From Escherichia coli (GTDB lineage Bacteria > Pseudomonadota > Gammaproteobacteria > Enterobacterales > Enterobacteriaceae), in the NCBI RefSeq assembly GCF_044324785.1, contig NZ_CP172127.1: a stretch of 64,000 nt of DNA. One strand, 5' to 3'. The notes below the pieces were generated by a model. That model ran no database searches. It saw nothing but the letters and a program-made list of their open reading frames with translations, and had not been told where the DNA came from. Position 1 is the stretch's first letter. Each line of letters opens with the position of its first letter. Both the position numbers and the translations under genes were made by a program. Positions 3,877 to 43,747 of the stretch are shown piece after piece.

Positions 3877-5110
3877 ACTTATTCACCACCATCAAATGCG
3901 CCTGCATAATGTCGCTGGCCGGACGACCGTGCGCCAGCAAATCAGCCATTGCTTTAAGATATGGCGGTAGATGGCGGAAATAACGCTGATACCCGGCACA
4001 CAAATAATTCAGCCCGGGTTTGCCGCTGGCATCGAGCATAAAGCGGTGTTTCGGACAGCCTCCCCAGCACGCTTTTAACACGTTGCAACTGCGACACTGC
4101 GCCGGTAACTGCTTAAATTTATCTTCACCAAACACCTGCTGTTGCGGGGAATCGATCATTTCTGCAATTGTTTGCTGGTGCATATTCCCCAGCCGATATT
4201 GCGGATAAACATAGTGATCGCAGGCGTAAACGTCGCCGTTGTGCTCAACAATCACCGAGCGCCCACAGGTTGGCTGATGATGGCAAACCGCACCTGGCGC
4301 ACCGACAAAATTGGCAAACGTCCATTCGATATTCATCACGAAAATCTTGCCGACGTCGCGTTTAATCCAGTGGTCGAATATCGCCACCAGAAATTCACCA
4401 AATTCATCGGGGCGCACCGACCATTCCGTCAGTTCGCCCTGAATATCGCCAGGCGCATGCAATTTCAGTCCATCGCGGGCAGCTGTTTCATCAGCCAGAC
4501 GCTCGACCACCGGAATAAACTGGATGAATTCCACTCCCGCATCGCACAAAAAATCATAAACCTGCAACGGTTGCTGCGCGCTGGTGCGGTTGACGCAGAC
4601 CAGCACGTTATAGTCGACATGATGTTTTTGCAGGAGCGTCAGGGCACGCATCACCAGCTTATGCGTTGGTCTGCCGCCTTTGGTCACGCGATATTGATTG
4701 TGGATCTCAGCCGGACCATCCAGCGATAACCCAACAAGAAAATGATTTTCTGCCAGAAATGCACACCATTCGTCATCAAGCAGAACGCCGTTAGTCTGGA
4801 AGCTGTTACTTATCTTCCTGCCAGCACCATATTTCGCCTGTAGCACCACGGCACGGCGGTAAAAATCCAGCCCGAGTAACGTTGGTTCGCCACCCTGCCA
4901 GGTAAAAGCCACTTCGTTTTGGGTTTCGCTGGCAGCGATATAGTGACGGACATACGCTTCCAGCGTGTCATCGTCCATATGAGTGACTGGCTTTTCGCGG
5001 TAAAGGGATTGTTTTTCGAGATAAAAACAGTAGTCACAGTTCAGATTACAATCGGAACCGCTCGGTTTCGCCATCACATGAAAAGCACGCGTTGGAACCT
5101 GTTGCAGCAT
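3875..5110 (-). CDS. aslB: Anaerobic sulfatase-maturating enzyme homolog AslB (radical SAM), 411 aa
   Basis: ORF with CxxxCxxC radical-SAM motif (CNLNCDYC). Start placed at ATG 5108-5110 (MLQQVPTRAF...) to match the recalled 411 aa; the ORF track start at 5140 is 10 codons longer. Confidence 0.88.
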   Translation of the reverse strand: MLQQVPTRAFHVMAKPSGSDCNLNCDYCFYLEKQSLYREKPVTHMDDDTLEAYVRHYIAASETQNEVAFTWQGGEPTLLGLDFYRRAVVLQAKYGAGRKISNSFQTNGVLLDDEWCAFLAENHFLVGLSLDGPAEIHNQYRVTKGGRPTHKLVMRALTLLQKHHVDYNVLVCVNRTSAQQPLQVYDFLCDAGVEFIQFIPVVERLADETAARDGLKLHAPGDIQGELTEWSVRPDEFGEFLVAIFDHWIKRDVGKIFVMNIEWTFANFVGAPGAVCHHQPTCGRSVIVEHNGDVYACDHYVYPQYRLGNMHQQTIAEMIDSPQQQVFGEDKFKQLPAQCRSCNVLKACWGGCPKHRFMLDASGKPGLNYLCAGYQRYFRHLPPYLKAMADLLAHGRPASDIMQAHLMVVNK

Positions 5111-5221
5111 GGTCGCTCCTTGCCTGAAGTCATCCTTCAATAAGTTAAGGGCGAAATCATACCGTGGCGCAATGAGTTATTACGGGCGTTTATTGCGAAG
5201 GGAAAGTGACGAAATGCACAG

Positions 5222-5250
5222 AAAACAAAAAACCCCGCCGAAGCGGGGTT
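5222..5250 (-). terminator. Intrinsic terminator of the argX-hisR-leuT-proM tRNA operon
   Basis: CCCCGC / GCGGGG hairpin followed on the minus strand by a U-rich run, directly 3' of tRNA-Pro. Confidence 0.7.
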
Positions 5251-5256
5251 CAAAAT

Positions 5257-5333
5257 TGGTCGGCGAGAGAGGATTCGAACCTCCGACCCACTGGTCCCAA
5301 ACCAGTTGCGCTACCAAGCTGCGCTACTCGCCG
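5257..5333 (-). tRNA. proM: tRNA-Pro (anticodon UGG)
   Basis: 77 nt; reverse complement reads CGGCGAGUAGCGCAGCUUGGUAGCGCAACUGGUUUGGGACCAGUGGGUCGGAGGUUCGAAUCCUCUCUCGCCGACCA; cloverleaf and anticodon loop read manually. Confidence 0.95.
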
Positions 5334-5375
5334 AAATACTGCTTTTTGAATTTTTAGTTCAATTCTTTAAAGTCG

Positions 5376-5462
5376 TGGTGCGAGGGGGGGGACTTGAACC
5401 CCCACGTCCGTAAGGACACTAACACCTGAAGCTAGCGCGTCTACCAATTCCGCCACCTTCGC
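5376..5462 (-). tRNA. leuT: tRNA-Leu (anticodon CAG), long variable arm
   Basis: 87 nt, 5' GCGAAGGUGGCGGAAUUGGUAGACGCG..., anticodon loop CUUCAGG, ends CCA. Confidence 0.95.
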
Positions 5463-5482
5463 ATTGTCACAACTTCTAATAA

Positions 5483-5559
5483 TGGGGTGGCTAATGGGAT
5501 TCGAACCCACGACAACTGGAATCACAATCCAGGGCTCTACCAACTGAGCTATAGCCACC
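5483..5559 (-). tRNA. hisR: tRNA-His (anticodon GUG) including the extra 5' G-1
   Basis: GUGGCUAUAGCUCAGUUGGUAGAGCCCUGGAUUGUGAUUCCAG...CCA read on the minus strand. Confidence 0.95.
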
Positions 5560-5616
5560 ACTACAAATCTTGTTACGCGGTATTACTACCACCGCAGCTC
5601 AAGCGCCGGGACTAAA

Positions 5617-5693
<77 letters not shown>

Positions 5694-5714
5694 TTAGCGC
5701 CGTTGCGGGGGTGG

Positions 5715-5743
5715 ATAATACGGACTTCCCACCCCTCTGTCTA
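5715..5743 (-). promoter_or_regulatory. Candidate sigma70 promoter of the tRNA operon (-35 TAGACA, 17 bp spacer, -10 TATTAT, GC-rich discriminator)
   Basis: Hexamers read on the minus strand about 20 nt upstream of argX; AT-rich UP-like tract further upstream. Confidence 0.5.
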
Positions 5744-5795
5744 GTCCCTTTTTAAATAAATTGCGCGTTTGGTTACGGTTTGTGCGTTTTGCTGC

Positions 5796-7181
5796 TTATT
5801 CCTCCAGTTTATGCGCTTTACCGTGGCGATTAAGCCCAAAAACTTTATAAATCGCCGTCACCGCCAGCATAAAGATGATGCCGACAAACAGCGACATACG
5901 CGTATCTTCATTAAAGTACATGCCGATCAAAACGCAAATCAGGAATGCCATTGTTACGTAGTTGGCCCACGGGAACAGGATTGAGCGGAACGGATGGCTG
6001 GCAATCGCCGCTTTATGCGCACGACGAAAACGCAGCTGGCTTATCAATATCACAAACCATGGCACCATCCCCGGAAGCACGCTGGCACTGTAGACGTAGA
6101 CAAACACACGCTGCGGATTGGGAATGACGTAGTTCAGGCATGAGCCAATTAACAGGATAGCAATAGATACTGCCACACCCGCAACCGGTACGCCGTGACG
6201 GGAAACTTTCGCCATCGCCGCCGGTAACTGACGGTTTTTCGCCAGTGCGTAGAGCATACGTCCGCAACTGTACATGCCGCTGTTACAGCCAGAGAGCGCA
6301 GCCGTCAGCACCACAAAGTTGATAATGCCCGCCGCTGCGGTAATACCGATTTTGGCGAAAGTCAGTACGAACGGGCTGCCGTTACTGCCTATTTCATTCC
6401 ACGGGAAGATGGTGACGATAACGAAAATCGCGCCTACGTAGAAAATCAGGATACGCCACAACACTTTGCCTACGGCACTGCGCAGCGTCACCTGCGGATT
6501 CTTCGCTTCACCGGCAGTAATGCCAATCAGCTCCACGCCCTGGTAGGACGCCACCACAATACACAATGCGGTCAGGAACCCTTTCCAGCCACCCGCAAAG
6601 AAACCGCCATGCTCTGTGAGATTGCTAAAACCAATCGACTGCCCGCCATTGCCAAAACCAAAGAAAATCACGCCCAGGCCAATGACAATCATCACGATAA
6701 TCGTGGTGACTTTGATCATCGCGAACCAGAACTCGATTTCGCCGTACAACCGCACCGCCGCCAGATTCGCCAGCGCCACCAGCGCCACCGCGATCAATGC
6801 GGGTATCCACTGCGCCATCTCCGGGAACCAGAACTGGACATAAACGCCAATGGCGGTGATTTCTGAGATCCCCACCGCCATCCACATAAACCAGTAAGAC
6901 CAGGCGGTGAGATAACCAAAGAACGGGCTCATATAACGATGCGCGTAAACGGCGAACGAACCGGTAACCGGTTCGAGGAACAACATTTCGCCCATTGAAC
7001 GCATGATGAAAAAGACGAACAGCCCGGCGATGATATAGGCCAACAATACGGATGGCCCGGCCCATTTCAGGGTACTGGCGGCCCCCATAAACAGGCCGAC
7101 GCCAATGGTGCCCCCCAGGGCGATGAGTTCGATATGTCGAGCTTCCAGCCCACGCTGTAGCTCTGGTTTGTTATCTGCCAT
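5796..7181 (-). CDS. yifK: APC-family amino acid permease YifK, 461 aa
   Basis: 461 aa polytopic membrane ORF with amino-acid permease signature; synteny next to the wec cluster. Confidence 0.9.
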
Positions 7182-7371
7182 AAATCCTCGTGTTGTGTTT
7201 GCATGCTTTCCGGTGTTACCGGTTATCGTTATGGGTACATCGAGTGTTGCGAATGTTTTCGTAATTCAGGAGAAATGGCAAATAAAGCATTAAAAATTTG
7301 AATGCTTTGTGTAATAAAAAAGCAGACAGGCGACGAAGTGACCACTCCGTCGCTTTACAAAGAGAGGAAAA

Positions 7372-8112
7372 TCAGAGGTTGCCGGTGTAATGCCAGCGTA
7401 AATAACGCAGCAAACGAAGCTGACGCTTAATGCGGCTCGGCTGCGAAAGTAGGCGGTAGAGCCACTCCAGCCCCAGCGTTTGCCAGATTTTCGGTGCGCG
7501 TTTCACGTGACCGGTGAAAACATCGTAAGTCCCGCCAACGCCCATATACAGCGCATCCGGATGCACCAGACGGCAGTCGCGCATGAAGATCTCCTGCTTT
7601 GGCGATCCCATCGCAACGGTGACGATTTGCGCTCCACTGGCATGAATGCGTTCAAACAGCGCCTGACGCTGCTCGGGTTTAAAATAACCATCCTGACTGC
7701 CAACGATATTCACATTCCACTGATTGCGCAGTTTAGCTTCAGTTTGCGCCAGCACTTCATGTTTACCGCCTACAAGAAATACCGGCGTCCCTTCTTTGCC
7801 TGCGCGCGCCATCAGCTCTTCCCAGAGATCGGCCCCGGCAACGCGGGAAACCTGCGCCTGCGGGTACTTTTTACGTACTGAACGTACAACGCTGATGCCA
7901 TCCGCATATTTAAATTCGGCAGCGTTAATTAACTCCCGGACCTCGGCGTTATCTTCAATGGTCAGCATTTTTTCGGCATTAATGGCAACCAGCGTTCCCT
8001 GCTTAAGCTGCCCGTCAGCGAACAGATAATCGAGGGCGTGCTGCATATCACGCCAACCAATCAACTGTAAGCCACGCAGCGTATAGGTCGGTGCCGTGGT
8101 ATTGTTATTCAT
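7372..8112 (-). CDS. wecG: UDP-N-acetyl-D-mannosaminuronic acid transferase (ECA synthesis), 246 aa
   Basis: 246 aa ORF, last gene of the ECA cluster by synteny. Confidence 0.9.
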
Positions 8113-8114
8113 TG

Positions 8115-9467
8115 TTATCCTTCAACCTGCGTCCGGAGCGATGATTTTGTTCGTTTATGAATGAGTCCGGCGCTTTCAAAAAGCCAGTACAACAGTTTTG
8201 CGATCATCAGACATGCGCCGAAGACCACGATAAAAAAGACCACGCGTGAGACAAACGAATCCAGCCCTTCACGCGCCAGCACGATCATATTGAAGATCGC
8301 CCCAAAGCAGAAACTGTGCAATATCGCAGCCTTATAGCGATTAGTCTCTCGGTTGCCCAGCTCATACAGCCAGTCGAACCATTTGATGATCAGTCCAACC
8401 ACGATCGCCCCGAGCGGGATGAACAACGCGCCGCCCATAACAACCAGTGAGCCTATAAGCGTAGGCGAGATCGCCAGCCCGGAGTGGTTATTCAGCACTT
8501 CCCAGGTAAAGTAGTTGGCGGAGTTCAGTACCATACTCGGGCGACCCGGCCACAGCCAGGAAGGGATAAAGACATAGAAATCGCGGACAATGGGAGCCAG
8601 ACCCTGGAAGTCGATGTTGTCGTAGTTCTGCAACAGCAATGCCAGATTCTCCCACGGCGAAAAGGTATCGCGGGTGAGATAGAGAAACGTATAGAACGCT
8701 TCATCACCGCTCACATTCATTCCATAGCGTTTTAGCGCCAGCCAGAACATGCCAACAATCCCCAGCACGCCCGCTGCCGCCAGCATCCACAACGAAATCC
8801 AGCCGCGAATAATGCCAATAAACAGGAAGATAGCGAATGCGATGATGATATTGGCGCGAGTGCCGCCGACAATCATATAAGTCAGCAAGCCAAAAGCGAC
8901 CGTGCTGACGAGGAAAAACAGCCACGCTTTGCTGTCCTGGCGCAGAAAGTAGACCACCAGCATCGCCGGGATGAAAAAGTAAAAGAAGCGTTTTAACGCC
9001 ACGCCGGAGACTTCACTGGAGAAGATCTGACTGTAGGAGTTAAGCCGGAACAGCAAAAAGCCGTTGTGCATGAAGAAGATGCCGACGCTTACCAGCGCGA
9101 TGCCCATCAGGATCACCCACGTAAGATTGGTCTCCACGCGGTTCATGGTAAACAGCGGACGGCGCGGTACATCAGCAACGCGTTTGCGTAGGCGGGTTTT
9201 GTAGGTGACGTAGTAAACCGCGTAGAAGCAGCCCGCAGAAAGCAACGCCTGCAACAAGATTTCTGGCGGCGCGACACCAACATCAAAGCGAAATACCAGC
9301 ACGCTGGTCAGCGGGAAGCCGAAGAAAAAGGTGAGCAAAAACAGCAATGAAAAGAAGACATTGAAGTTAAAGCGCACACGGCGAAACTCAAACCAGGTCA
9401 GCGTGGCAATAAACAACGTACAGAGCAGCCAGACAACAAACAGGCCACTGAATTGCAGCAGACTCAT
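8115..9467 (-). CDS. wzyE: ECA polymerase WzyE, 450 aa polytopic membrane protein
   Basis: 450 aa highly hydrophobic ORF; position in cluster. Confidence 0.9.
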
Positions 9468-10543
9468 GCGACCTCCCCGGCGGCAATAGCCAACGCCCGC
9501 TGCCAGCCTTGCAGATAGTTCGGGCTAAAGAAGGCAATGGTGTTTTTATCCACCGACGCCAACTGGCGCTGCGCTTCACGCACAATATCCTCGTTGAGAT
9601 CATCGGTAGTAAACAGTACTGGCAAATGCTGTTCCGTCATATCCTGCCAGAACGGATTTTCCCGGTTAAGCACACAAGGAATGCCCGCCTGAATCAGTAA
9701 GCAAAGCGTACCAATGCCCTGCTGGCGGGCAAAAATAAAGTAACCGAGATCGCACTGGCGAAGTAGCGTCAGATAGGCGTCAAATTCCAGTTTTTCGCTC
9801 AGAACTTGTAGATTTTCTTCGCTGAATAACTCCAGTCCCGCCTGACGAACTTCCTCGATGTACGCTTCGTTATTAGGCGGATATCCCATCGGCACCACCA
9901 CTTTTACCGTATCGCCAAATTGCTGATGAACGGCGCGCAAGGCAGCAATATGCTCATTGCTGCGGTCACCGGAGTTCCCCACCAGAATGGTCATTTTTCC
10001 TTCACGTTGCCGATCGTTCGCCATCGTATTAAGAGAAGGGTCCATCCGCGTCGGGAAGTACAGCAGTTCTCCCCGCACCTTTGGATGCGTTTTGGCAAAA
10101 AAGCTCAAATCACCGCGGGTGGCAAATACACAGCCGACTCTCTTTTGCGCCAAGCGACGTAGCGGGTAAAAAAGCTTATATCTCAAGCCACTGGAAAGCT
10201 CGTACAGGTCTGCCCCCCAGATATGCCAGTAAAACTGGCTGGGCTTAATGCCACCACTCAGCAGAGCCAGCCACAGTGTGGGATTGAACTGACCGTGGAA
10301 GAAAAAACGCTGCTGACGGTTAGCTTTTGCTTTCGCGATGACCGCTTCCGCCAGCGATTTTTTCCCAGGGAAAAATTGCACAGAAAGCGTCGGACAGCTA
10401 TCACTTAAGCCGTCGTCCTTGCCAACAACCATAAACTCGCGCGCGTGCTCGCTCGTCGCGGCCAGCGCGTCATTGAAAAACCGCAAAACGGTTCGGTTAT
10501 GGTGAGGGATATCCGATCCCAGTACGTGAATCAGTACAGTCAT
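9464..10543 (-). CDS. wecF: TDP-Fuc4NAc:lipid II 4-alpha-L-fucosaminyltransferase, 359 aa
   Basis: 359 aa ORF; 4-bp overlap with wzyE; synteny. Confidence 0.9.
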
Positions 10544-11790
10544 GCCCGCCTACGCCAGAGTAAAAACACGCCACAACAAAGAGAAAAATAGACGATATAA
10601 GTTGCCATATATGCCTGCGCCGCGCCCAGTGCACCATGCGCAGGGATTAGCCAGTGGGCAAATACCATCAATAAAGTGAACTGGCTGACTTCCGCCAGAA
10701 TATAAAACCGCAATGACGCTTTGGCGATCACCAGATAACCAAAGACATAAGCGCCCACTTTTAACACATCACCCACCAACTGCCAGGCAAAGAGATCGCG
10801 CATAGCGGTAAATTTATTCGACAACAGCAGCCAGATAGCAAAATCACGCAGCAACCAGACGGTAAAACTCGCCGCCGCCACTGCCGGTAAGACGAATTTC
10901 AGCGATTTAACCACTTCCCGGGTGATATCGCGCTTTTCCGTTAGCCGCGACAACGTGGGCAGCAAATATACGCTGAACGATGCCGTAATAAATTGCAGGT
11001 AGGCATCGGAAATACTACTCACCCCTTGCCAGATCCCCACTTCATCCCAGCTATACTGCGCCGCCAGCAGTTTACGCATCATGATGTAAGCAACGGGCAA
11101 GGTCACCGACGTAATCAACGCCATGAGCGTAAATTTGCTCAACTGCCCTGCCAGGCCGTTATCCCAGCTGGGTTTCAGATAGCTTAACGGGATTGCACCA
11201 CGCTTAATTAGCATGATGACGGCAGGAATCACCACCAGCGCGGGAATCAACGCCAGCCCCAGCAACGCCCCTTCATAACCGCCCAAACGGTAACTGACGT
11301 AGTACGCGAGAACGCCAATCAGGCTGCCGACAATCAGGGATAACGCATTACCTGCGGCATCGCGAAAGCCTTTCATCAACGCCAGTAACAGGTTGCCCCA
11401 GGCGATCCCCATTTGCACCAACGCCACTAAACGCACCAGCCCCTGATAGTCGGTATTACCAAACAATCCCTGGCTAATTGGGGCTGCCGCTAGCACAAAA
11501 ACCAGCGCCATCAGCGTAGAGAAGCCAAGTACCATCGCTGATGAAGTGCCTACCACGCGGCGCAGCTGCTGCGGATTATCATGGTACTGAGCAACGTATT
11601 TGGTTACGCCATTAAAGATGCCCGCCCCGGCAAGCACGCCGAGCACGGTAATCAACTGGCGGAAATTTGCCGCCAGCCCAAGCCCCGCAGGACCAAATGA
11701 CACCGCCAGCAACTTACCTACCAGTAACCCGGCACCAATCTTGACCAGTGTACTGGCCGCCGTCCACAAGGACGCTTTTGCCAACGACAT
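10540..11790 (-). CDS. wzxE: ECA lipid III flippase WzxE, 416 aa
   Basis: 416 aa polytopic membrane ORF; synteny. Confidence 0.9.
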
Positions 11791-11791
11791 A

Positions 11792-12922
11792 TCAGGAGAA
11801 GTAGTTCAACAAGGTCGCAATTACCGTGCGCTGATTGACGGGCGACAGGTTGTAGAACAACGGCAGGCGCAGCAGGCGCTCGCTCTCTTTGGTGGTGTAG
11901 CGATCTTCACCGTGGAACTCACCAAAGCGTTCCCCCGCAGGGCAACCGTGCAGCGGAATGTAATGGAACACCGCCATGATTTCCGCTTCTTTCAGAAAGT
12001 TAATCAACGCGCTCCGGTCATCAATATCCCGCAGTTTAATGTAGAACATATGCGCGTTCTGCACGCAGCCATCGGGAATCGACGGCAGCTCGATACGCCC
12101 GGCTTTCGCCAGAGGTGCTAACGCATCGTAGTAGTTTTGCCACAGCGCCAGACGTTGCTGATTGATACGATCCGCTGCTTCCAGTTGCGCCCACAGGTAC
12201 GCAGCTTGCAGATCGGACATCAAATAGCTGGAGCCGATATCGCGCCAGGTATATTTATCGACCTGACCACGGAAGAACTGGCTGCGGTTAGTGCCTTTTT
12301 CACGGATGATCTCGGCGCGTTCGATCAACGCTTTATCGTTAATCAGCGTCGCACCGCCTTCACCGCCCGCCGTGTAGTTTTTGGTTTCATGGAAGCTAAA
12401 GCAGCCAATATGACCAATGGTTCCCAGTGCACGCCCTTTGTAAGTGGACATCACGCCCTGAGCGGCATCTTCCACCACAAACAGATTATGCTTTTTCGCC
12501 AACGCCATAATGGTGTCCATTTCGCAGGCCACACCCGCGTAATGGACCGGTACGATAACGCGCGTTTTGTCGGTGATCGCTGCTTCAATCAACGTTTCGT
12601 CGATGTTCATGGTGTCCGGGCGAACATCCACAAAAACGATTTTCGCGCCACGCAGCACAAAGGCATTGGCGGTGGAGACAAAGGTGTAGCTCGGCATGAT
12701 CACTTCATCGCCAGGCTGGATATCGAGCAGCAGCGCCGCCATCTCCAGCGAAGCGGTGCAGGATGGCGTCAGTAACACTTTGGCGCTGCCAAAACGTTGC
12801 TCCAGCCACTGCTGGCAGCGACGGGTAAAACCGCCATCGCCGCACAGTTTGCCGCTACCCATTGCCGACTGCATATAGTCGAGTTCGGTTCCCACCACCG
12901 GCGGTGCGTTAAATGGAATCAT
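11792..12922 (-). CDS. wecE: dTDP-4-amino-4,6-dideoxygalactose transaminase, 376 aa
   Basis: 376 aa ORF of the DegT/aminotransferase type; synteny. Confidence 0.9.
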   Translation of the reverse strand: MIPFNAPPVVGTELDYMQSAMGSGKLCGDGGFTRRCQQWLEQRFGSAKVLLTPSCTASLEMAALLLDIQPGDEVIMPSYTFVSTANAFVLRGAKIVFVDVRPDTMNIDETLIEAAITDKTRVIVPVHYAGVACEMDTIMALAKKHNLFVVEDAAQGVMSTYKGRALGTIGHIGCFSFHETKNYTAGGEGGATLINDKALIERAEIIREKGTNRSQFFRGQVDKYTWRDIGSSYLMSDLQAAYLWAQLEAADRINQQRLALWQNYYDALAPLAKAGRIELPSIPDGCVQNAHMFYIKLRDIDDRSALINFLKEAEIMAVFHYIPLHGCPAGERFGEFHGEDRYTTKESERLLRLPLFYNLSPVNQRTVIATLLNYFS

Positions 12923-12926
12923 GTGA

Positions 12927-13601
12927 TCACCTGTATAACCAGTACGCGGTGCTTTCTACATTCGCACCACTTTGTATGTATCGTTTTAGCGCGGCGGTGT
13001 TGCCCATTTGGGTCGCCACCCGCAAAGTTGTTTTACCGCGAGCATACGCCCAGTTTAGCGCCGTTTGCATCAGCTCAGCACCTGCACCTCGTCCAGCCAG
13101 CAGGCCAATTCGCGCATCTGTCGCATTGAGTTCCCGTAAAGAGACATAGCCGCGAATATCGCCGGACGCCGCACGTAAAATCAGACATTGATGATCAAAG
13201 GTGCCGCGCACGGCATTTTCAATCCACTGTGCATAAAAGCGTCCGCTGGCGTCAGGCGCATACCACGGCGCACGAAAACGGCTTTGCGCAAATGCGGCGC
13301 TGGCTAACTGACGTAATGCGGGAATATCGGTCTCTTGTGCCACTACAGCACCACTATCACTGACATTGTTCACGGGTAGCGCCAAATCAACTTCACCTTC
13401 TACCAGGGAGAATCCCAGCTGTTGCAGGGCATCCAGTTCACCCGTATTTGATGCCGCAATTTTGGCCTGTACCCGTGACCACGGCGCTAAGGTGTCTGAC
13501 GTCAGGAGCGGTGCTTCAGGCGTGATGCGCACGATGGCGCTGTTAACACCAAAGAAGGCGTTTTCCCAGGTTAGTGGCTCAATACTGGCGCGGACGGGCA
13601 C
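12927..13601 (-). CDS. wecD: dTDP-fucosamine acetyltransferase (GNAT); start codon uncertain
   Basis: 224 aa as the longest ORF, whose 5' end overlaps the rffH 3' end by 23 nt; a shorter in-frame start is possible. Confidence 0.75.
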
Positions 13602-14460
13602 GAAGTAACTCCAGCAGATATTGGCCGTAGCCGGTTTTCGCCAGCGAGCTGGCGGCGCGCTTCACGCCTTCGTCATCAAGCCAGCCGTTACGCCAGGCGA
13701 TCTCTTCCAGGCAGGCAATCTTAAAGCCCTGGCGTTTTTCTACCGTCTGTACAAAGGTACTGGCTTCAATCAGGCTGTCGTGAGTACCGGTGTCCAGCCA
13801 GGCAAATCCGCGCCCGAGCAGTTCAACGGTCAGGTTACCCGCCTCGAGGTACATCTGGTTGATGGAGGTAATCTCCAGTTCACCACGCTCCGACGGCTTC
13901 ACCTGCTTTGCGTACTCCACGACTTTACTGTCGTAGAAATAAAGTCCGGTCACCGCCCAGTTTGACTTCGGCTGTTTTGGCTTTTCTTCCAGCGAGATAG
14001 CGCGGAAATTGTCGTCAAACTCCACGACGCCAAAGCGTTCCGGATCCATCACCTGATAGCCAAATACCGTCGCGCCTTGCGTGCGCGCCGCAACATGACG
14101 CAACTTCGGACTGAAGCCCTGTCCGAAGAAGATGTTATCGCCCAGCACCAGACAAGAAGGTTCACCGTTGAGGAAGGTTTCACCGATGATAAAGGCCTGC
14201 GCCAGACCGTCCGGACTGGGCTGTTCGGCATATTCCAGCTGGATACCGAACTCACTACCATCGCCCAGCAGGCGCTGGAAATAACCTTTATCTTCCGGCG
14301 TAGTGATGATGAGAATTTTGCGGATACCGGCCAGCATCAGCACCGACAGCGGATAGTAAATCATTGGCTTATCGTAAATCGGCAACAGTTGCTTCGATAC
14401 GCCGCGCGTAATCGGATGCAATCGGGTACCGGAACCGCCTGCCAGGATAATACCTTTCAT
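13579..14460 (-). CDS. rffH: Glucose-1-phosphate thymidylyltransferase, 293 aa
   Basis: N-terminal GGSGTRL nucleotidyltransferase motif; 293 aa. Confidence 0.92.
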
Positions 14461-14478
14461 GTTTGCCTCCGCTGAAAA

Positions 14479-15546
14479 TTAGCCTTTCAGACCTAAACGC
14501 TCGCCCTGATAGCTACCGTCCTGCACCTGCTTCCACCAGCTTTCATTAGCCAGATACCACTGCACCGTTTTACGCATTCCACTTTCAAAGGTTTCCTGCG
14601 GCAGCCAGCCAAGTTCACGGGCAATTTTCGAAGCATCAATGGCATAACGCAGATCATGCCCCGGACGGTCAGCGACAAAGGTGATCAGGTCACGATAGTG
14701 CGCCACGCCGTGCGGCTTGTTCGGGGCCAGTTCTTCCAGCAACTCGCAAATGGTTTCCACAACATCGAGATTCTTACGCTCGTTGTGACCACCAATATTA
14801 TAGGTTTCACCGACTTTCCCGGTGGTCGCCACGCAATACAGCGCGCGGGCGTGATCTTCCACATACAGCCAGTCACGGATTTGCTGCCCGTTGCCATATA
14901 CCGGCAGCGGTTTACCCGCCAGCGCGTTGAGGATCATCAGCGGGATCAGTTTTTCCGGAAAGTGGTAAGGACCGTAGTTATTCGAGCAGTTGGTGATAAG
15001 CGTCGGCAGACCATAGGTCCGCAGCCAGGCGCGTACCAGATGGTCGCTGCTGGCTTTTGAAGCGGAATAAGGGCTGCTCGGCGCATACGGCGTGGTTTCG
15101 GTGAAGAAATCATCCGTCGAGTGCAGGTCACCATATACTTCGTCGGTGGAAATATGATGAAAACGGAACGCTGATTTTTTATCTTCCGTCAGCGCATTCC
15201 AGTAAGTCCGCGCCGCTTCAAGCAATGTATAAGTCCCGACAATGTTGGTTTCAATAAACGCTGCCGGGCCGTCAATAGAACGGTCAACATGGCTTTCGGC
15301 TGCCAGATGCATGACACAGTCTGGCTGATGCTCAGTGAATACGCGCGCCAGTTCTGCCCGATCGCAGATATCAACTTTCTCAAAGGCAAAGCGCTCGCTT
15401 TGCGCGACCGGTGCCAGCGACATCAGATTTCCGGCGTAGGTCAGCTTATCGACCACTATCACCGCGTCGCTCGTTTCGTTGATGATATAACGCACCAGCG
15501 CTGAGCCAATAAACCCGGCACCACCTGTTATCAGAATCTTTCTCAT
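14479..15546 (-). CDS. rffG: dTDP-glucose 4,6-dehydratase, 355 aa
   Basis: N-terminal TGGAGFIGS Rossmann motif; 355 aa. Confidence 0.92.
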
Positions 15547-16808
15547 CAGCGCCAGACTCCTTTGGCATCGACGACATACTGCTGATGGACATTGTCGCCA
15601 TTGATAACTTTGAACTGACTATGATCGACCAGCATCACCAGCACGTCTGCCGTTGCCAGCGCCTCGTCAAGCTGCGCCAGAGTACAAAGCCCAGTCAGTT
15701 TCTTCGGCAACTGGTGGATGTTAGGCTCAACAACCAGCGTTTCGCCGCTGTGCCACTGGGCGATCAGTTCAGCGATTTCCATCGCCGGGCTTTCGCGCAG
15801 GTCATCAATATTCGGTTTAAACGCCAGACCAAAGCAGGCGATTTTCAGTTCGCTGGCGCGTTTATCGGTAGCCGCCAGGCAGTCGGCAACCGCCGCTTTC
15901 ACCTGATCGATAACCCAGAACGGTTTGTGATCGTTCACTTCGCGCGCGGTACGGATAAGCCGCGCCTGCTGGGGGTTCTGTGCCACGATAAACCACGGAT
16001 CAACAGCGATGCAGTGGCCGCCCACGCCAGGGCCAGGCTGAAGAATATTGACGCGAGGGTGACGATTCGCCAGGCGAATCAGTTCCCAGACGTTAATTCC
16101 CTGATCGGCACAAATCAGCGACAATTCATTAGCAAAAGCGATATTCACATCGCGGAAGCTGTTTTCGGTGAGCTTACACATTTCCGCCGTCCGCGAGTTA
16201 GTGACGACACACTCACCTTCGAGGAAAATTTTGTACAGTTCGCTGGCGCGGGCCGAACAAACCGGCGTCATACCACCAATCACGCGATCGTTTTTAATCA
16301 GCTCGACCATAACCTGGCCCGGTAACACGCGTTCCGGGCAGTAAGCAATGTTGACGTCCGCCTGCTCGCCCACCTGCTGTGGGAAAGTGAGATCCGGACG
16401 CATCTCTGCTAACCATTCTGCCATCTTCTCGGTTGACCCCACCGGCGAGGTGGATTCAAGGATCACCAGCGCGCCTTTTTTCAGCACTGGCGCAATGGAG
16501 CGAGCAGCCGATTCAACGTAGGTCATATCTGGCTCATGATCGCCTTTAAACGGCGTGGGTACAGCAATCAGCCAGGCATCCGCTTCAACTGGCGTCGTGC
16601 TCGCTCGTAAAAAACCGCCTTCTACGGCAGTTTTTACTACGCTCGCCAAATCAGGTTCGACGATATGGATTTCGCCACGATTGATGGTATCAACCGCATG
16701 TTGGTTGATATCGACACCAATCACCTGTTTTTGCCGTGAGGCAAACGCTGCTGCTGTAGGCAGCCCGATGTAACCCAGTCCGATAACAGAAATGGTCGCA
16801 AAACTCAT
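15546..16808 (-). CDS. wecC: UDP-N-acetyl-D-mannosamine dehydrogenase, 420 aa
   Basis: N-terminal GLGYIG nucleotide-binding motif; 420 aa. Confidence 0.92.
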
Positions 16809-17935
16809 AGTGATATCCGATTATTTTTTAACGCTTCCAGAATGCGAGAGCATGCCTGACCATCACCATACGGGTTATGGGCGCGGCTCATAGTTTGATA
16901 TTCGTTTTCGTCTTTTAAAAGACGCGTCACTTCCTCGACAATTCGCTGCTTATCCGTGCCTACCAGACGCACCGTACCCGCCGTCACCGCTTCCGGACGC
17001 TCAGTGGTATCGCGCATCACCAGCACCGGTTTCCCCAGCGAAGGCGCTTCTTCCTGAATGCCGCCTGAGTCGGTCAAAATCAGCCAGGCGTGGTTCATCA
17101 GCCAGACAAACGGTAAATACTCCTGGGGATCGATCAGAATGACATTTTTCACATGCCCCAGAATGCGATTGACCGGCTCTCTGACGTTCGGGTTGAGATG
17201 CACCGGATAGACAATCTGGATGTCCTGGTGCGTGGTGGCGATGTCTGCCAGCGCATGGCAGATTTCTTCAAAGCCACGACCGAAGCTCTCACGCCTGTGA
17301 CCGGTCACCAGAATCATTTTTTTATTGGGGTCGATAAACGGGTAATTTGCCGCCAGTTCTGAACGCAGCGTATCGCTGCTCATCACCTGGTCACGCACCC
17401 ATAACAGTGCATCAATAACTGTATTACCGGTAATGAAGATTCGGCTGTCAGCAACATTTTCACGCAGCAAGTTTTGCCGGGAAGTTTCGGTTGGAGAGAA
17501 GTGATACATCGCCAGATGCCCGGTCAATGTACGGTTAGCCTCTTCCGGCCACGGCGAATAGAGATCGCCCGTGCGCAGACCAGCCTCAACGTGACCAACA
17601 GGAATACGCTGATAAAACGCCGCCAGGCTGGTTGCCAGCGTTGTAGTAGTATCGCCGTGAACCAGCACGACGTCTGGTTTGAACTCGGCAAGAATTGGTT
17701 TTAGCCCTTCCAGAATCCGACAGGTTATCTCTGTCAGGCCCTGTCCTGGCTGCATTATGTTGAGATCGTAGTCAGGTACAATGGAAAAGAGTTTCAGCAC
17801 CTGATCGAGCATCTCCCGATGCTGCGCAGTGACGCAAACTTTAGCCTCAAAAAAAGGATCTTTTGCCAACGCATGCACCAACGGAGCCATCTTGATGGCT
17901 TCCGGGCGCGTACCAAATACAGTCAGTACTTTCAC
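16805..17935 (-). CDS. wecB: UDP-N-acetylglucosamine 2-epimerase, 376 aa, GTG start
   Basis: ORF track begins 14 codons upstream; start set at GTG ([15 protein letters not shown]...) to match the recalled 376 aa. Confidence 0.88.
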
Positions 17936-17990
17936 ATCGATTCTCTTCGAATAAGCGGCGAGCGCCTTTGCGCTCACCGCAGCAGTGTTG

Positions 17991-19037
17991 CTATTTCGAG
18001 CAACGGCGGGTTAATGCGACACCAGCCCCGGTCAGCCCCCCGACAATGCCCCACATAATCATCAGGAAGGCACGACGTGGGCTATCGCGTTTTACCGGTT
18101 CTTCCGGCGTACGCAAATAGCGATAGGTCTGAAAACGCGGATCCAGGGTTGGACCAACATTCAGGGTGTTTAACATGGCCCGATTCTGATCATAGTCGAG
18201 ATCAAAGGCCGGACCGACGGCCTGTAAATTTTCCAGTCGAGCCTGGAGCATTGGACGCCCAAGCAGGAACATTTCTGAATCAGGCAATTCCTCGGCAGGC
18301 ACATCTGTCGCACTGCGCGAAATATTATGCTGCTCTGCAATTTTCAGCGCCTGTTCAATACTGTTCATCCGGCGGTCGTAGATGGCTTTCGCCACCTCTT
18401 CCTGACGCTTCACCTGTGCTTTCATCTGGATGGTGCGCGCCGCCCATGCACCTTTCAGCTCATCATTCAGATGGCTGGCTGCACGCTGGCTGGCAAAAGC
18501 AACATACTGACGTAACAGGTTATTAGCGTCAGGCGCGGTTTCGGCAATCAGCTTCACGCTGTCATTGACCGCGCGGGTAAAGTCTCCGGGGATAAACTGG
18601 ATGTTATTAATCATTTCATCCAGCAACGCCGCATCGGCTTTGCTGTTGCCCACCATCCGCTGCTTGTAATAGTCGGTTTGCAGCCAGAACTCTCTGCGGG
18701 TATCCCACGAGGCCAGTTGCATAACAAACTCTTTATAGGCTTCGTCCATGACCGATGGTTGGTCGGCAGAAGCCATGTTTGAACGGACATCCAGGTTACG
18801 CAAAAATTGCTGCTGTGAGTAATATCCCCCCAGCATATTCACCGTTGGACGATCGGTAATCGCCGTCGAGCTCCACTCCTGACGAGCAAAAAAAGTATAC
18901 GCCAGCGCGATTAACGCAAACGCCAGTCCCATGCCAATAATCCACAGCTTCCCAGCCCACAAGGTACGAAACAACCCACGAATATCCAGTTCATTTTCAG
19001 CGTCTTCGGCCGGTTTCCCAGGCATTGGTTGTGTCAT
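17991..19037 (-). CDS. wzzE: ECA chain-length regulator WzzE, 348 aa
   Basis: ORF with two transmembrane segments flanking a periplasmic coiled-coil region; start at the second Met (MTQPMPGK...). Confidence 0.9.
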
Positions 19038-19048
19038 CACATCCTCAT

Positions 19049-20152
19049 TTATTTGGTTAAATTGGGGCTGCCACCACGATTTCTACGCAGTCTGCGTTTT
19101 ATGCGCTTAATAAAGCGAGCAACTTTCCAGGCACGCTTAATGCAATATCCATAGAGGAAGAATGCTAGCAAAAAGAGCACCAGCATGACCCACTCCGGGA
19201 CAAAATGAGAGTATTCTGCCAGCACGCCAATAGAGGCAAGCAGTGCTGCGGCAAGGGTAATCAGCACAAATGCCTGGCGGGAAGTAAACCCGGCACGCAT
19301 GATCAAATGGTGAATATGCTGACGGTCAGGAGAGAACGGGCTCATGCCTTTACGCAGGCGACGGTACATAATCGCCACCATATCCATTAGCGGAATGGCG
19401 ATAATCCATAATGCGGTAACCGGGCTTATTGGGTGCGTTTTTCCCTGAGTCGTTTCCAGCAGGATCCAGATAACGGTAAAACCAATCAGCGTACTACCCG
19501 CATCACCCATGAAGACTTTGTAGCGGCGCCCGAGGATACCAAGGTTGAGCATGATATAGGGCAGGATGGCGGCGATCATCGCAAAGCACCAGATTGCGAG
19601 GCTGGTTTGCCCGTCGAACCACAAAATCATACCGATTGCTGCAAACGAGACGCAGGACAGCCCACCCAGCAAGCCATCAATGCCATCGACCATGTTGAAT
19701 GCATTAATGGCCGCCCAGACGGCAAATAGCGTCAGGAAGTAGCCAAACGGTCCGAGCACCATCTCCCAGGAGCCAAAGATATAACCCAGGCTACTGAGAT
19801 ACAGTTTGCCGAACACCATCATAACAATGCCAACAGCGGCCTGTATGGTGGCACGGATTTTTACGCTGATATCAAAACGGTCATCCAGCGCGCCAATGAA
19901 AACAAGCACACCGGCACAAGCGAGATAGAGAGATGCATGCGGAATATAGTAATCGACGATTCCGAACGTGAAGCAAATCCCTGCGTAAACCGAAATCCCC
20001 CCAACGAGAGGTATCAATCCCTGGTGACGTTTGCGGAAGTTTGGTTTATCCACTAAACCGACTTTTTTTGCCACCTTACGGGCAAAAAACAGAAACAGTG
20101 TCGTGAATAAAAAAATACTGATGAGATCAGTACTCACTGTCAGTAAATTCAC
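19049..20152 (-). CDS. wecA: UDP-GlcNAc:undecaprenyl-phosphate GlcNAc-1-phosphate transferase, 367 aa
   Basis: 367 aa polytopic ORF; first gene of the cluster downstream of rho. Confidence 0.92.
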   Translation of the reverse strand: MNLLTVSTDLISIFLFTTLFLFFARKVAKKVGLVDKPNFRKRHQGLIPLVGGISVYAGICFTFGIVDYYIPHASLYLACAGVLVFIGALDDRFDISVKIRATIQAAVGIVMMVFGKLYLSSLGYIFGSWEMVLGPFGYFLTLFAVWAAINAFNMVDGIDGLLGGLSCVSFAAIGMILWFDGQTSLAIWCFAMIAAILPYIMLNLGILGRRYKVFMGDAGSTLIGFTVIWILLETTQGKTHPISPVTALWIIAIPLMDMVAIMYRRLRKGMSPFSPDRQHIHHLIMRAGFTSRQAFVLITLAAALLASIGVLAEYSHFVPEWVMLVLFLLAFFLYGYCIKRAWKVARFIKRIKRRLRRNRGGSPNLTK

Positions 20153-20330
20153 AATGCATGCTCTCAGAGAAAAATATTAGCAGAAGTATAACCACGAAGG
20201 CCTTTATTCAGAAGGGAAACTCTGCTCTGAACCCACCAACCTTGTGCAAAAAACAACCACGTGATTCGTGTTATGCGCAATAAACAAACATAACTCGTAT
20301 TTGTTATAACGCCGTTAAGATTACAGATAT

Positions 20331-20365
20331 AAAAACAAAACGCCACGTAAATACGTGGCGTTTTT
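20331..20365 (-). terminator. Bidirectional intrinsic terminator downstream of rho
   Basis: CGCCACGT / ACGTGGCG stem with AAAT loop, flanked by an A-run on one side and T5 on the other, about 15 nt past the rho stop. Confidence 0.65.
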
Positions 20366-20379
20366 GGCATAAAACAAAT

Positions 20380-21639
20380 TTATGAGCGTTTCATCATCTC
20401 GAAGAAATCGTCATTGGTCTTGGTCATTGCCAGTTTATTAATGAGGAATTCCATTGCATCGATTTCGCCCATCGGGTGAATGATTTTGCGCAGGATCCAC
20501 ATTTTCTGCAGTTCTTCCTGAGTAGTGAGCAGCTCTTCTTTACGGGTACCGGAACGGTTGTAGTCGATTGCCGGGAAGACGCGTTTTTCAGCGATCTTAC
20601 GAGAGAGGTGCAGTTCCATGTTGCCTGTACCTTTAAACTCTTCGTAGATAACTTCGTCCATCTTGGAACCGGTATCGATAAGCGCGGTAGCGATGATGGT
20701 CAGGCTGCCGCCCTCTTCCACGTTACGCGCCGCACCGAAGAAGCGTTTCGGACGATGCAGGGCGTTGGCATCCACACCACCGGTCAGCACTTTACCTGAC
20801 GCCGGAACAACGGTGTTGTAAGCGCGCGCCAGACGAGTGATGGAGTCGAGCAGAATGATAACGTCTTTCTTGTGCTCAACCAGGCGTTTCGCCTTCTCGA
20901 TCACCATTTCCGCAACCTGAACGTGGCGAGATGCGGGTTCGTCAAAGGTAGAAGCAACAACTTCACCTTTTACCAGTCGCTGCATCTCGGTTACTTCTTC
21001 TGGACGTTCGTCGATCAGCAGAACCATCAGCACACAATCCGGGTGGTTGTAAGCAATGCTCTGAGCAATGTTCTGCAGCAGCATGGTTTTACCGGCTTTC
21101 GGCGGTGCCACAATCAGACCACGCTGACCACGACCGATAGGTGATGCCAGATCCAGTACGCGAGCGGTTAAATCTTCAGTAGAACCGTTACCACGTTCCA
21201 TACGCAGACGAGAGTTTGCGTGCAGCGGGGTTAAGTTCTCAAAGAGGATTTTGTTGCGGGCGTTTTCAGGTTTGTCGAAGTTAACTTCGTTAACTTTCAG
21301 CAGCGCAAAATAGCGTTCACCTTCTTTCGGCGGGCGAATCTTACCAGAGATGGTATCACCAGTGCGGAGGTTGAAACGGCGGATTTGGCTAGGGGAAACG
21401 TAGATGTCATCAGGACCGGCGAGGTAGGAGCTGTCTGCGGAACGGAGGAAACCAAATCCATCCTGCAATATCTCCAGTACGCCATCACCAAAGATATCTT
21501 CGCCACTCTTTGCGTGCTGCTTCAGGATGGCAAAAATAATGTCCTGCTTACGCATACGAGCCAGGTTTTCCAGCCCCATATTTTCGCCGAGAGTGATCAG
21601 CTCAGAAACCGGCGTATTCTTTAATTCGGTAAGATTCAT
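20380..21639 (-). CDS. rho: Transcription termination factor Rho, 419 aa
   Basis: Start at [14 protein letters not shown]...; Walker A/B ATPase motifs; the ORF-track start at 21711 adds 24 non-native codons. Confidence 0.95.
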
Positions 21640-21723
21640 AGTGGTGTGAGTTCTTAAACTTGGGGTAAATCTCGAACTTAATGTTGTGAATGGTATGGCA
21701 GGATCATCCATGCCTGTTTACGG

Positions 21724-21825
21724 TCATCGACTCATGTCTTTTCGCTGTCTGGTCACAGGAGAGTACGCAGAACTGAAACGACAAGACGGATTGAGTGACG
21801 AGCCAGAAATCTGTTCACTTCGCAT
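21724..21825 (-). CDS. rhoL: rho operon leader peptide, 33 aa
   Basis: Manually translated minus-strand ORF MRSEQISGSSLNPSCRFSSAYSPVTRQRKDMSR upstream of rho; below the ORF-track size cutoff. Confidence 0.7.
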   Translation of the reverse strand: MRSEQISGSSLNPSCRFSSAYSPVTRQRKDMSR

Positions 21826-21965
21826 TTAAGATAAAACGGGAAGCGTTGGAAATTACAAGATTCAAACTTAATAAGGTATGTTTAATACGAAGTCAACACT
21901 AAGTTAGCATGACTCACGCCGGGCGTCCAGTTTTTAGCGACGGGGCACCCGAACATGAAATTCCC

Positions 21966-22295
21966 TTACGCCAGGTTAGCGTCGAGGAACTCTTTCAACT
22001 GACCTTTAGACAGTGCGCCCACTTTGGTTGCCGCCACTTCACCGTTTTTGAACAGCAGCAGAGTCGGGATACCACGGATACCATATTTCGGCGCAGTGCC
22101 AGGGTTTTGATCGATGTTCAGTTTTGCAACGGTCAGTTTGCCCTGATATTCGTCAGCGATTTCATCCAGAATCGGGGCGATCATTTTGCACGGACCGCAC
22201 CACTCTGCCCAGAAATCGACGAGGATCGCCCCGTCCGCTTTGAGTACATCCGTGTCAAAACTGTCGTCAGTCAGGTGAATAATTTTATCGCTCAT
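21966..22295 (-). CDS. trxA: Thioredoxin 1, 109 aa
   Basis: Start at [13 protein letters not shown]...; WCGPC active site; the ORF track adds 35 upstream codons. Confidence 0.95.
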
Positions 22296-40147: not shown

Positions 40148-40223
40148 TGGCAGGGGCGGAGAGACTCGAACTCCCAACACCCGGTTTTGGAGACCGGTGC
40201 TCTACCAATTGAACTACGCCCCT
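40148..40223 (-). tRNA. trpT: tRNA-Trp (anticodon CCA)
   Basis: AGGGGCGUAGUUCAAUUGGUAGAGCACCGGUCUCCAAAACCGGGUGUUGGGAGUUCGAGUCUCUCCGCCCCUGCCA on the minus strand. Confidence 0.95.
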
Positions 40224-40231
40224 AATTAGGG

Positions 40232-40308
40232 TGGCGGAACGGACGGGACTCGAACCCGCGACCCCCTGCGTGACAGGCAGGTATTCTAACCGACTGAACT
40301 ACCGCTCC
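40232..40308 (-). tRNA. aspT: tRNA-Asp (anticodon GUC)
   Basis: GGAGCGGUAGUUCAGUCGGUUAGAAUACCUGCCUGUCACGCAGGGGGUCGCGGGUUCGAGUCCCGUCCGUUCCGCCA on the minus strand. Confidence 0.95.
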
Positions 40309-43671: not shown

Positions 43672-43747
43672 TGGCGTCCCCTAGGGGATTCGAACCCCTG
43701 TTACCGCCGTGAAAGGGCGGTGTCCTGGGCCTCTAGACGAAGGGGAC
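43672..43747 (-). tRNA. gltU: Spacer tRNA-Glu (anticodon UUC)
   Basis: GUCCCCUUCGUCUAGAGGCCCAGGACACCGCCCUUUCACGGCGGUAACAGGGGUUCGAAUCCCCUAGGGGACGCCA on the minus strand. Confidence 0.95.

Follow-up and report, generated by a model that had tools for sequence, protein, structure and literature searches.

The wecD gene of the Escherichia coli sequence analysed here (a 64,000-nt stretch of contig NZ_CP172127.1, assembly GCF_044324785.1; hereafter, the window) is translated, with a probability that we put at about 0.94, from the GTG codon at positions 13601–13599, which yields the 224-residue crystallised TDP-fucosamine acetyltransferase. The sequence, comparative and structural evidence all agree on this start. 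The placement of the wecD start inside the rffH gene is a real and ordinary feature, already annotated in RefSeq, and not a new kind of system. Judging from the sequences compared, the overlap of the two genes is not something that ORF calling produced by chance: as in genuine overlaps, the start of the downstream gene is conserved in orthologues, and coding constraint is seen in both frames of the shared segment.

Gene Models and the rffH/wecD Overlap

The wecD (rffC) gene occupies positions 12927–13601 of the minus strand (675 nt, 224 codons, GTG start, TGA stop at 12929–12927) and encodes dTDP-4-amino-4,6-dideoxy-D-galactose (TDP-fucosamine) acetyltransferase. These boundaries are those of the RefSeq CDS, and the same 675 nt with the same rffH overlap were found in all E. 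coli records inspected. The upstream gene rffH, named rfbA in RefSeq (13579–14460, minus strand, TGA at 13581–13579), encodes a glucose-1-phosphate thymidylyltransferase of 293 aa; its product matches PDB 1MC3 with an E value of 5e-198 and TIGR01207 with 533 bits. The next gene, wecE (rffA; 11792–12922, minus strand), follows the wecD stop after a 4-nt gap.

The two genes share positions 13579–13601 of the minus strand, a segment of 23 nt that is read in two different frames. It contains the rffH codons (R)ARPRQY-stop, wecD codons 1–7 and the two leading bases of codon 8. The G and T of the wecD start codon GTG (13599–13601, minus strand) are positions 2 and 3 of an rffH Arg codon, CGT. RmlA paralogues align with RffH up to residue 286–287 only; therefore, the overlap encodes a short C-terminal RffH tail beyond the RmlA-homologous region. 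This tail is conserved among RffH orthologues as RARPRQY or HVRPRQY.

Upstream of the GTG, the wecD frame is closed by a TGA (13662–13664, minus strand), and there is no ATG, GTG or TTG from there to 13601, which rules out an earlier start. The next canonical in-frame start downstream is GTG codon 24 (Val24; 13530–13532, minus strand), which would give a product of 201 aa. Codon 44 (13470–13472, minus strand), whose use would give 181 aa, is GTA in the window and thus not a start codon. A scan of the first 110 codons showed no in-frame ATG.

The region is the enterobacterial common antigen (ECA, wec/rff) cluster on the minus strand, with the gene order wecA-wzzE-wecB-wecC-rffG-rffH-wecD-wecE-wzxE-wecF-wzyE-wecG both in the window and in the RefSeq annotation. 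wecD lies directly upstream of wecE, the position expected of a WecD family member. Other short overlaps in the cluster are found at wecB/wecC (4 nt), wecC/rffG (1 nt), wzxE/wecF (4 nt) and wecF/wzyE (4 nt), and the remaining six junctions from wecA to wecG are gaps of 1, 2, 4, 11, 18 and 55 nt.

A first-pass annotation of the window had described the longest wecD ORF as one of 224 aa that begins at 13601 within the 3' end of rffH, with a 23-nt overlap, and had named the two genes wecD, for a GNAT acetyltransferase, and rffH. The coordinates were checked and these assignments hold, as does the remark that the overlap is unusually long for the cluster, since it is the sole long one there. A shorter product made from a downstream in-frame start, which it had considered, is possible in formal terms, and GTG codon 24 is the first canonical candidate. 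Its statement that most neighbours overlap by 1–4 nt fits four of the other ten wecA-to-wecG junctions and fails for the six that are gaps.

Initiation Signals at the Candidate Starts

The strength of Shine-Dalgarno pairing was calculated as the energy of the duplex with the 3' end of 16S rRNA. The GTG at 13601, which is the first start after the in-frame TGA at 13664–13662, has the best value of the candidates (−5.9 kcal/mol), while pairing is weak before GTG codon 24 at 13532 (−2.8 kcal/mol) and amounts to −2.2 kcal/mol before codon 44 (GTA, 13472–13470). The motif in front of 13601 is GGAG at 13609–13612 (minus strand), with a 7-nt spacer to the GTG; it is made of the rffH codons CTG-GAG (Leu-Glu). 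The Glu codon of this motif is GAG, never GAA, in 38 of the 38 loci that encode Glu there. The share of GAG among all Glu codons of the same rffH genes is 43%, and every one of the nine invariant Glu columns of rffH contains both GAG and GAA. This suggests selection at a synonymous site of rffH for the ribosome-binding site of wecD, with counts that come from related, non-independent loci. Klebsiella and Raoultella have Asp (GAT) at that rffH codon and, with it, a weaker Shine-Dalgarno sequence, GGAT (−3.1).

The wecD start had been regarded as ambiguous in the first-pass annotation, a view to be abandoned if a clear initiation signal were seen only at 13601. To the extent that sequence and comparative data can tell, this is what is seen: 13601 has the sole good Shine-Dalgarno match, and it is also favoured by the conserved start, the coding-type substitutions in codons 8–23 and the ordered N-terminus of the protein.

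Several gene calls place the start even farther upstream. WecD models of 233–234 aa from S. bongori and others (P0054, P0082, P0098 and P0111) begin nine codons upstream. The ATG of such models, which occur in Klebsiella, Raoultella and S. bongori gene calls, is ACG in the window; it arises from a synonymous TAT (vs. TAC) Tyr codon of rffH, and the resulting extension MANTYWILS... is not conserved. On these alignments, the models of 233–234 aa are probably over-extended.

Folding of the mRNA around the wecD start (13671–13552) revealed no significant structure (z = −0.99); this value gives no support to sequestration of the start or to coupling based on such structure. Entries for wecD/rffC/b3790 are absent from the supplements of the TRAINSPOTTER N-terminomics study (PMC13245402), of the tetracycline ribosome-profiling study (PMC4909307) and of the ribosome-signature start-site study of Giess et al. 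(PMC5576327). The tetracycline study screened positions up to 60 nt from annotated starts, and codon 24, at +69 nt, lies beyond this range. A literature search on the rffC start codon returned nothing relevant.

Conservation of the Start in Enterobacteriaceae

The comparison set comprised 80 Enterobacteriaceae loci, one per species, with 65–95% WecD identity; with the window, 81 loci were compared. A canonical start is present at the aligned codon in 68 of the 81; its distance from that codon is at most one codon in 79 loci and at most five in all 81, these loci being phylogenetically related and the counts not independent events. The two outlying loci begin three and five codons upstream; the latter is L055, whose TTGA junction was read by eye. 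By script, the start codon is GTG in 55 loci, ATG in 17 and TTG in 8, to which the TTG of L055, read by eye, is added. Such alternation of GTG, ATG and TTG at one position is what real initiation codons typically show. At codon 24, 41/81 loci have a start-capable triplet and the others GTT, GTC, GTA or CTG; codon 44 is start-capable in 53/81 and is GTA in 19/81. By this pattern, both behave as ordinary Val codons.

An intact rffH lies upstream of wecD in 44 loci, and the overlap is 23 nt in every one of them. Directly upstream of wecD is wecC in 33 loci and rffG in one. In the loci without rffH, the position of the wecD start is unchanged, and the junctions are GTGA or TTGA with a 4-nt overlap, TGATG with a 1-nt overlap, or gaps of 9–78 nt; the start position is independent of whether the upstream gene is rffH, rffG or wecC. 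Seven Raoultella, Klebsiella and related loci have a 78-nt spacer; its 3' part is what remains of a degenerating rffH 3' end and still bears the wecD start, which in four of the seven is now ATG in place of GTG. Taken together, the loci provide a clean textbook case both of dual-coding constraint and of a start codon that survives the loss of the upstream gene.

As for the fate of the upstream genes themselves, rffG and rffH are missing and wecC abuts wecD in 33 of the 80 species-level loci (L007, L015, L017, L018, L026, L027, L032, L035–L037, L040, L045, L047, L048, L054, L055, L058, L059, L065, L068–L078, L080–L083), with the junction near position 1500 of each. L019 retains rffG only, and gene fragments are retained in L033 and L086/L087. 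The locus L067, titled Chryseobacterium sp. 18061, carries an Enterobacteriaceae-type rffH-wecD pair in which WecD is 68% identical and the overlap is again 23 nt; this assembly is probably mislabelled or contaminated.

Dual-Coding Constraint and Age of the Overlap

Variation in the overlap was assessed in the 47 loci with a 23-nt junction sequence, 44 of which have an intact rffH. In wecD codons 2–7, the third positions are invariant, and almost all variation falls on second positions, where rffH has its wobble bases; the constraint on the shared segment is thus mainly that of RffH. Once the rffH stop is passed, from codon 8, variation moves mainly to the third positions. W12, E13, F16, F17 and S21 are invariant within Enterobacteriaceae. 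In representatives of the wider family with 30–56% identity, W12 and F17 stay invariant and L10 and F16 nearly do, and the N-termini predicted for these proteins are colinear. The substitution pattern indicates that wecD codons 8–23 are coding.

Five distant orthologous loci with an intact rffH were compared (L085, L088, L089, L090 and L091 (CP006569.1)), in which WecD is 39–53% identical to the query. The overlap is exactly 23 nt in four of them and 17 nt in the fifth, and the 23-nt length is retained in orthologues of 43–53% identity. In L088, L089, L090 and L091 (positions 2499–2503), wecD begins with ATG and RffH has His (CAT-G), whereas the E. coli sequence CGT-G gives GTG and Arg; L085 retains the GTG start and the RffH Arg. 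A single A/G nucleotide, therefore, determines both ATG or GTG in wecD and His or Arg in RffH. The rffH/wecD overlap is an ancient, conserved dual-coding segment.

The WecD Family and the Structure of the N-Terminus

The 224-aa product scores 356.4 bits against the NF008212 equivalog (cut-off 219), with residues 1–224 aligned to positions 1–231 of 232 of the model; when residues 1–23 are removed, this score falls by 35 bits. Two Pfam GNAT families match above the gathering score, PF13302 (28.6 vs. 25.4, residues 89–206) and PF00583 (28.0 vs. 20.7, residues 120–208), and Y208 is invariant in WecD. The TIGR02382 model (191 positions; 323.3 bits vs. 195.1) matches residues 44–224 only, which suggests an earlier truncated gene model that began at codon 44. 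The early K-12 annotation of wecD had, we assume, a product of 181 aa. For inferring the N-terminus of WecD, TIGR02382 is unsuitable.

The K-12 enzyme WecD/RffC (2FS5 and 2FT0; Hung et al. 2006, cited in PMC4964394 and PMC7439462) is the same protein of 224 aa. A comparison with the crystallised K-12 sequence aligned 223 residues and indicated three substitutions, T27S, S34P and T37A (relative to the crystal). From this near-identity to the characterised enzyme (PMC7439462), WecD would act by acetyl-CoA-dependent acetylation of TDP-fucosamine. In the K-12-like strain C600, the GTG start context and the 23-nt rffH overlap are those of the window, with a few amino-acid and synonymous differences, one of the latter at codon 44, which is GTG in C600 and GTA in the window.

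The crystallised construct, with which the first-pass annotation had suggested a comparison, carries residues 2–224 (PDB 2FS5/2FT0, E 1e-142) behind an 11-residue N-terminal tag. Residues 3–69 form an ordered domain, the domain limits being those of a review (PMC4964394). The tagged construct establishes residues 3–23 as structural; it does not place the start used in the cell. In the AlphaFold model (mean pLDDT 90.5), whose superposition on 2fs5_A takes in 221 of the 222 resolved residues (TM score 0.95, rmsd 1.6 Å), beta1 spans residues 4–9, alpha1 residues 11–17 and beta2 residues 21–26, with a pLDDT of about 90 there. Codon 24 falls inside beta2, so a start at residue 24 would mean the loss of beta1, alpha1 and half of beta2.

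Alternative Starts

Three other assignments of the start were weighed against GTG 13601. Long prokaryotic overlaps are often mispredictions of the start codon, according to PMC2478687, and GTG-24 is a canonical start codon in the window; on this view, the true start would be GTG codon 24 (13532), the protein would have 201 aa, and the 23-nt overlap would be an artefact of taking the longest ORF. We regard this as extremely unlikely, given the weak Shine-Dalgarno pairing of −2.8, a codon that could serve as a start in only 41/81 loci, the coding-type substitutions and invariant residues in codons 8–23, which this start would leave untranslated along with beta1, alpha1 and half of beta2 of the ordered domain, and the conservation of the position equivalent to 13601 even in loci without any overlap. 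It is highly unlikely that a minor, N-terminally truncated isoform, initiated internally at codon 24 or elsewhere, accompanies the 224-aa protein from 13601. Isoforms from internal starts are documented genome-wide in E. coli (bioRxiv 10.1101/520783), and the sequence does not strictly forbid low-level initiation at GTG-24. However, within the first 80 codons no internal position is kept as a start (codon 44 comes closest, being start-capable in 53/81 loci, and is GTA here), no internal start has a good Shine-Dalgarno match, and the truncated product would lack part of the folded domain. The chance that the legacy start at codon 44 (181 aa, the TIGR02382 region) is the true one is negligible. 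The limits of TIGR02382 and the GTG of C600 speak for it; in the window, as in 19/81 loci, the codon is GTA, and this start is refuted for the present genome by the absence of a start codon. The Shine-Dalgarno match of −2.2, the order of residues 3–43 in the crystal and the conservation of residues 1–43 among orthologues also contradict it. The GTG at 13601 remains the preferred start, and the way in which ribosomes reach it is considered below.

Mode of Initiation and Comparison with Known Overlaps

No promoter-like site was found in 12700–14700, and wecD is thus read from the polycistronic ECA (wec/rff) operon mRNA. On the likeliest mechanism that we infer, 30S subunits would be directed by the putative ribosome-binding site GGAG (13612–13609), placed 7 nt from the start inside the last rffH codons, probably with the aid of the ribosomes that translate rffH. 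The wecD gene begins 23 nt before the end of rffH in a different frame, the overlap encoding only the RffH tail ARPRQY, and RffH constrains the wobble positions of wecD codons 2–7.

Termination-reinitiation would also lead to 13601: a ribosome that ends rffH translation at 13581–13579 would move back about 20 nt and restart, with no new 30S subunit at the Shine-Dalgarno sequence. The two genes are co-directional in one operon with no promoter-like site nearby, the overlap is conserved across the order, and where rffH is lost, wecD is often joined to wecC by a 4-nt or 1-nt overlap, the typical geometry of reinitiation. Against it, the spacing of stop and start in reinitiation-coupled pairs (−4, −1, −8) is not that of rffH/wecD, with its 23-nt overlap and a stop 20 nt downstream of the start. 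In native E. coli pairs, reinitiation becomes steeply less efficient the farther the start lies downstream of the stop: 40–80% of the efficiency is lost at +14 nt and nearly all of it at +38 nt (PMC10666635). That GGAG is conserved at a synonymous site also points to Shine-Dalgarno-directed initiation, and in at least 12 loci, wecD has a start of its own behind a gap of 9–78 nt, with no coding sequence overlapping it from upstream. Reinitiation as the route to 13601 is therefore rather unlikely in our estimate, and an obligatory form of it is less likely than Shine-Dalgarno-directed initiation because of the stop 20 nt downstream of the start and the strong distance dependence of the process (PMC10666635).

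Among known systems, rffH/wecD is close to the coupled pairs that have 4-nt or 1-nt overlaps (ATGA, GTGA, TGATG; Huber et al. 2023, PMC10666635). Like them, rffH and wecD are adjacent genes of one operon with the start of the second inside the first, and the wecD-wecC junctions of species without rffGH are exactly of these 4-nt and 1-nt types. Unlike in those pairs, the E. coli wecD start lies 20 nt upstream of the rffH stop and is preceded by a conserved, well-placed Shine-Dalgarno sequence, which makes de novo initiation no less likely than reinitiation.

The overlap also resembles the phase-1 unidirectional overlaps of Fonseca et al. 2013 (PMC3887535) in being co-directional, out of frame and, with 23 nt, long. 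We assigned it to this class by its frame, which is not the one of the 1-nt and 4-nt overlaps, and not by a length-based definition of phase. In that dataset, virtually every phase-1 overlap is long, and the class accounts for about 32% of unidirectional overlaps; misannotation is suspected for overlaps of more than 60 nt, a limit below which rffH/wecD remains. Since phase-1 overlaps are common, the 23-nt overlap is unusual locally, not globally. While members of the class in general may be mispredictions, the rffH/wecD overlap is real and ancient, with a dual-coding constraint that is visible base by base.

A more far-reaching interpretation is that the overlap is a conserved regulatory module and not a neutral relic. 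It would fix the ratio of RffH to WecD synthesis by coupled initiation; the A/G nucleotide would tune the strength of the start together with His or Arg at RffH residue 287 (distant Enterobacterales, Sodalis-like ones among them, have ATG, and Enterobacteriaceae have GTG), and species that lost rffGH would rebuild the coupling with wecC through 4-nt or 1-nt overlaps. We consider this interpretation doubtful.

In practice, a deletion or insertion at the 3' end of rffH removes the ribosome-binding site and the start of wecD. Because these signals lie within rffH, carelessly designed rffH mutants would be polar on wecD. The 224-aa WecD model and the overlap are reliable for structure-based work, knock-out design and ECA pathway models; beyond annotation hygiene, the importance of the result is small.

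Other Observations in the ECA Cluster and the Window

The part of the window from 5000 to 22000 is 99.6% identical to E. coli strain N3, and 5,424 of 5,426 complete E. coli genomes match it with at least 95% identity over most of its length. The wecA gene (19049–20152, minus strand, 367 codons) is intact in the window; in N3, the closest genome, it is a frameshifted pseudogene (L084, 1849–2951). The longest wecB ORF (16805–17977, minus strand; GTG start, 390 aa) extends 14 codons beyond the RefSeq CDS (1131 nt, start near 17935), which is a second discrepancy between the longest ORF and the annotated start within the ECA cluster. In the complete genome of E. coli LB19b (L003, 1700–2287), the interval between mid-wecD and the 3' portion of wecE is deleted, and the annotation lists each of the two genes as a partial pseudogene; loss of ECA or accumulation of an intermediate should be expected in this strain.

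Outside the cluster, genes of tRNA-Pro, -Leu, -His and -Arg are grouped at 5257–5693 (minus strand), downstream of thrP. Those of tRNA-Trp, tRNA-Asp and tRNA-Glu (40148–40308 and 43672–43747, minus strand) lie within a stretch of about 40.1–45.8 kb that contains no ORF of 140 aa or more and is most likely an rRNA operon.
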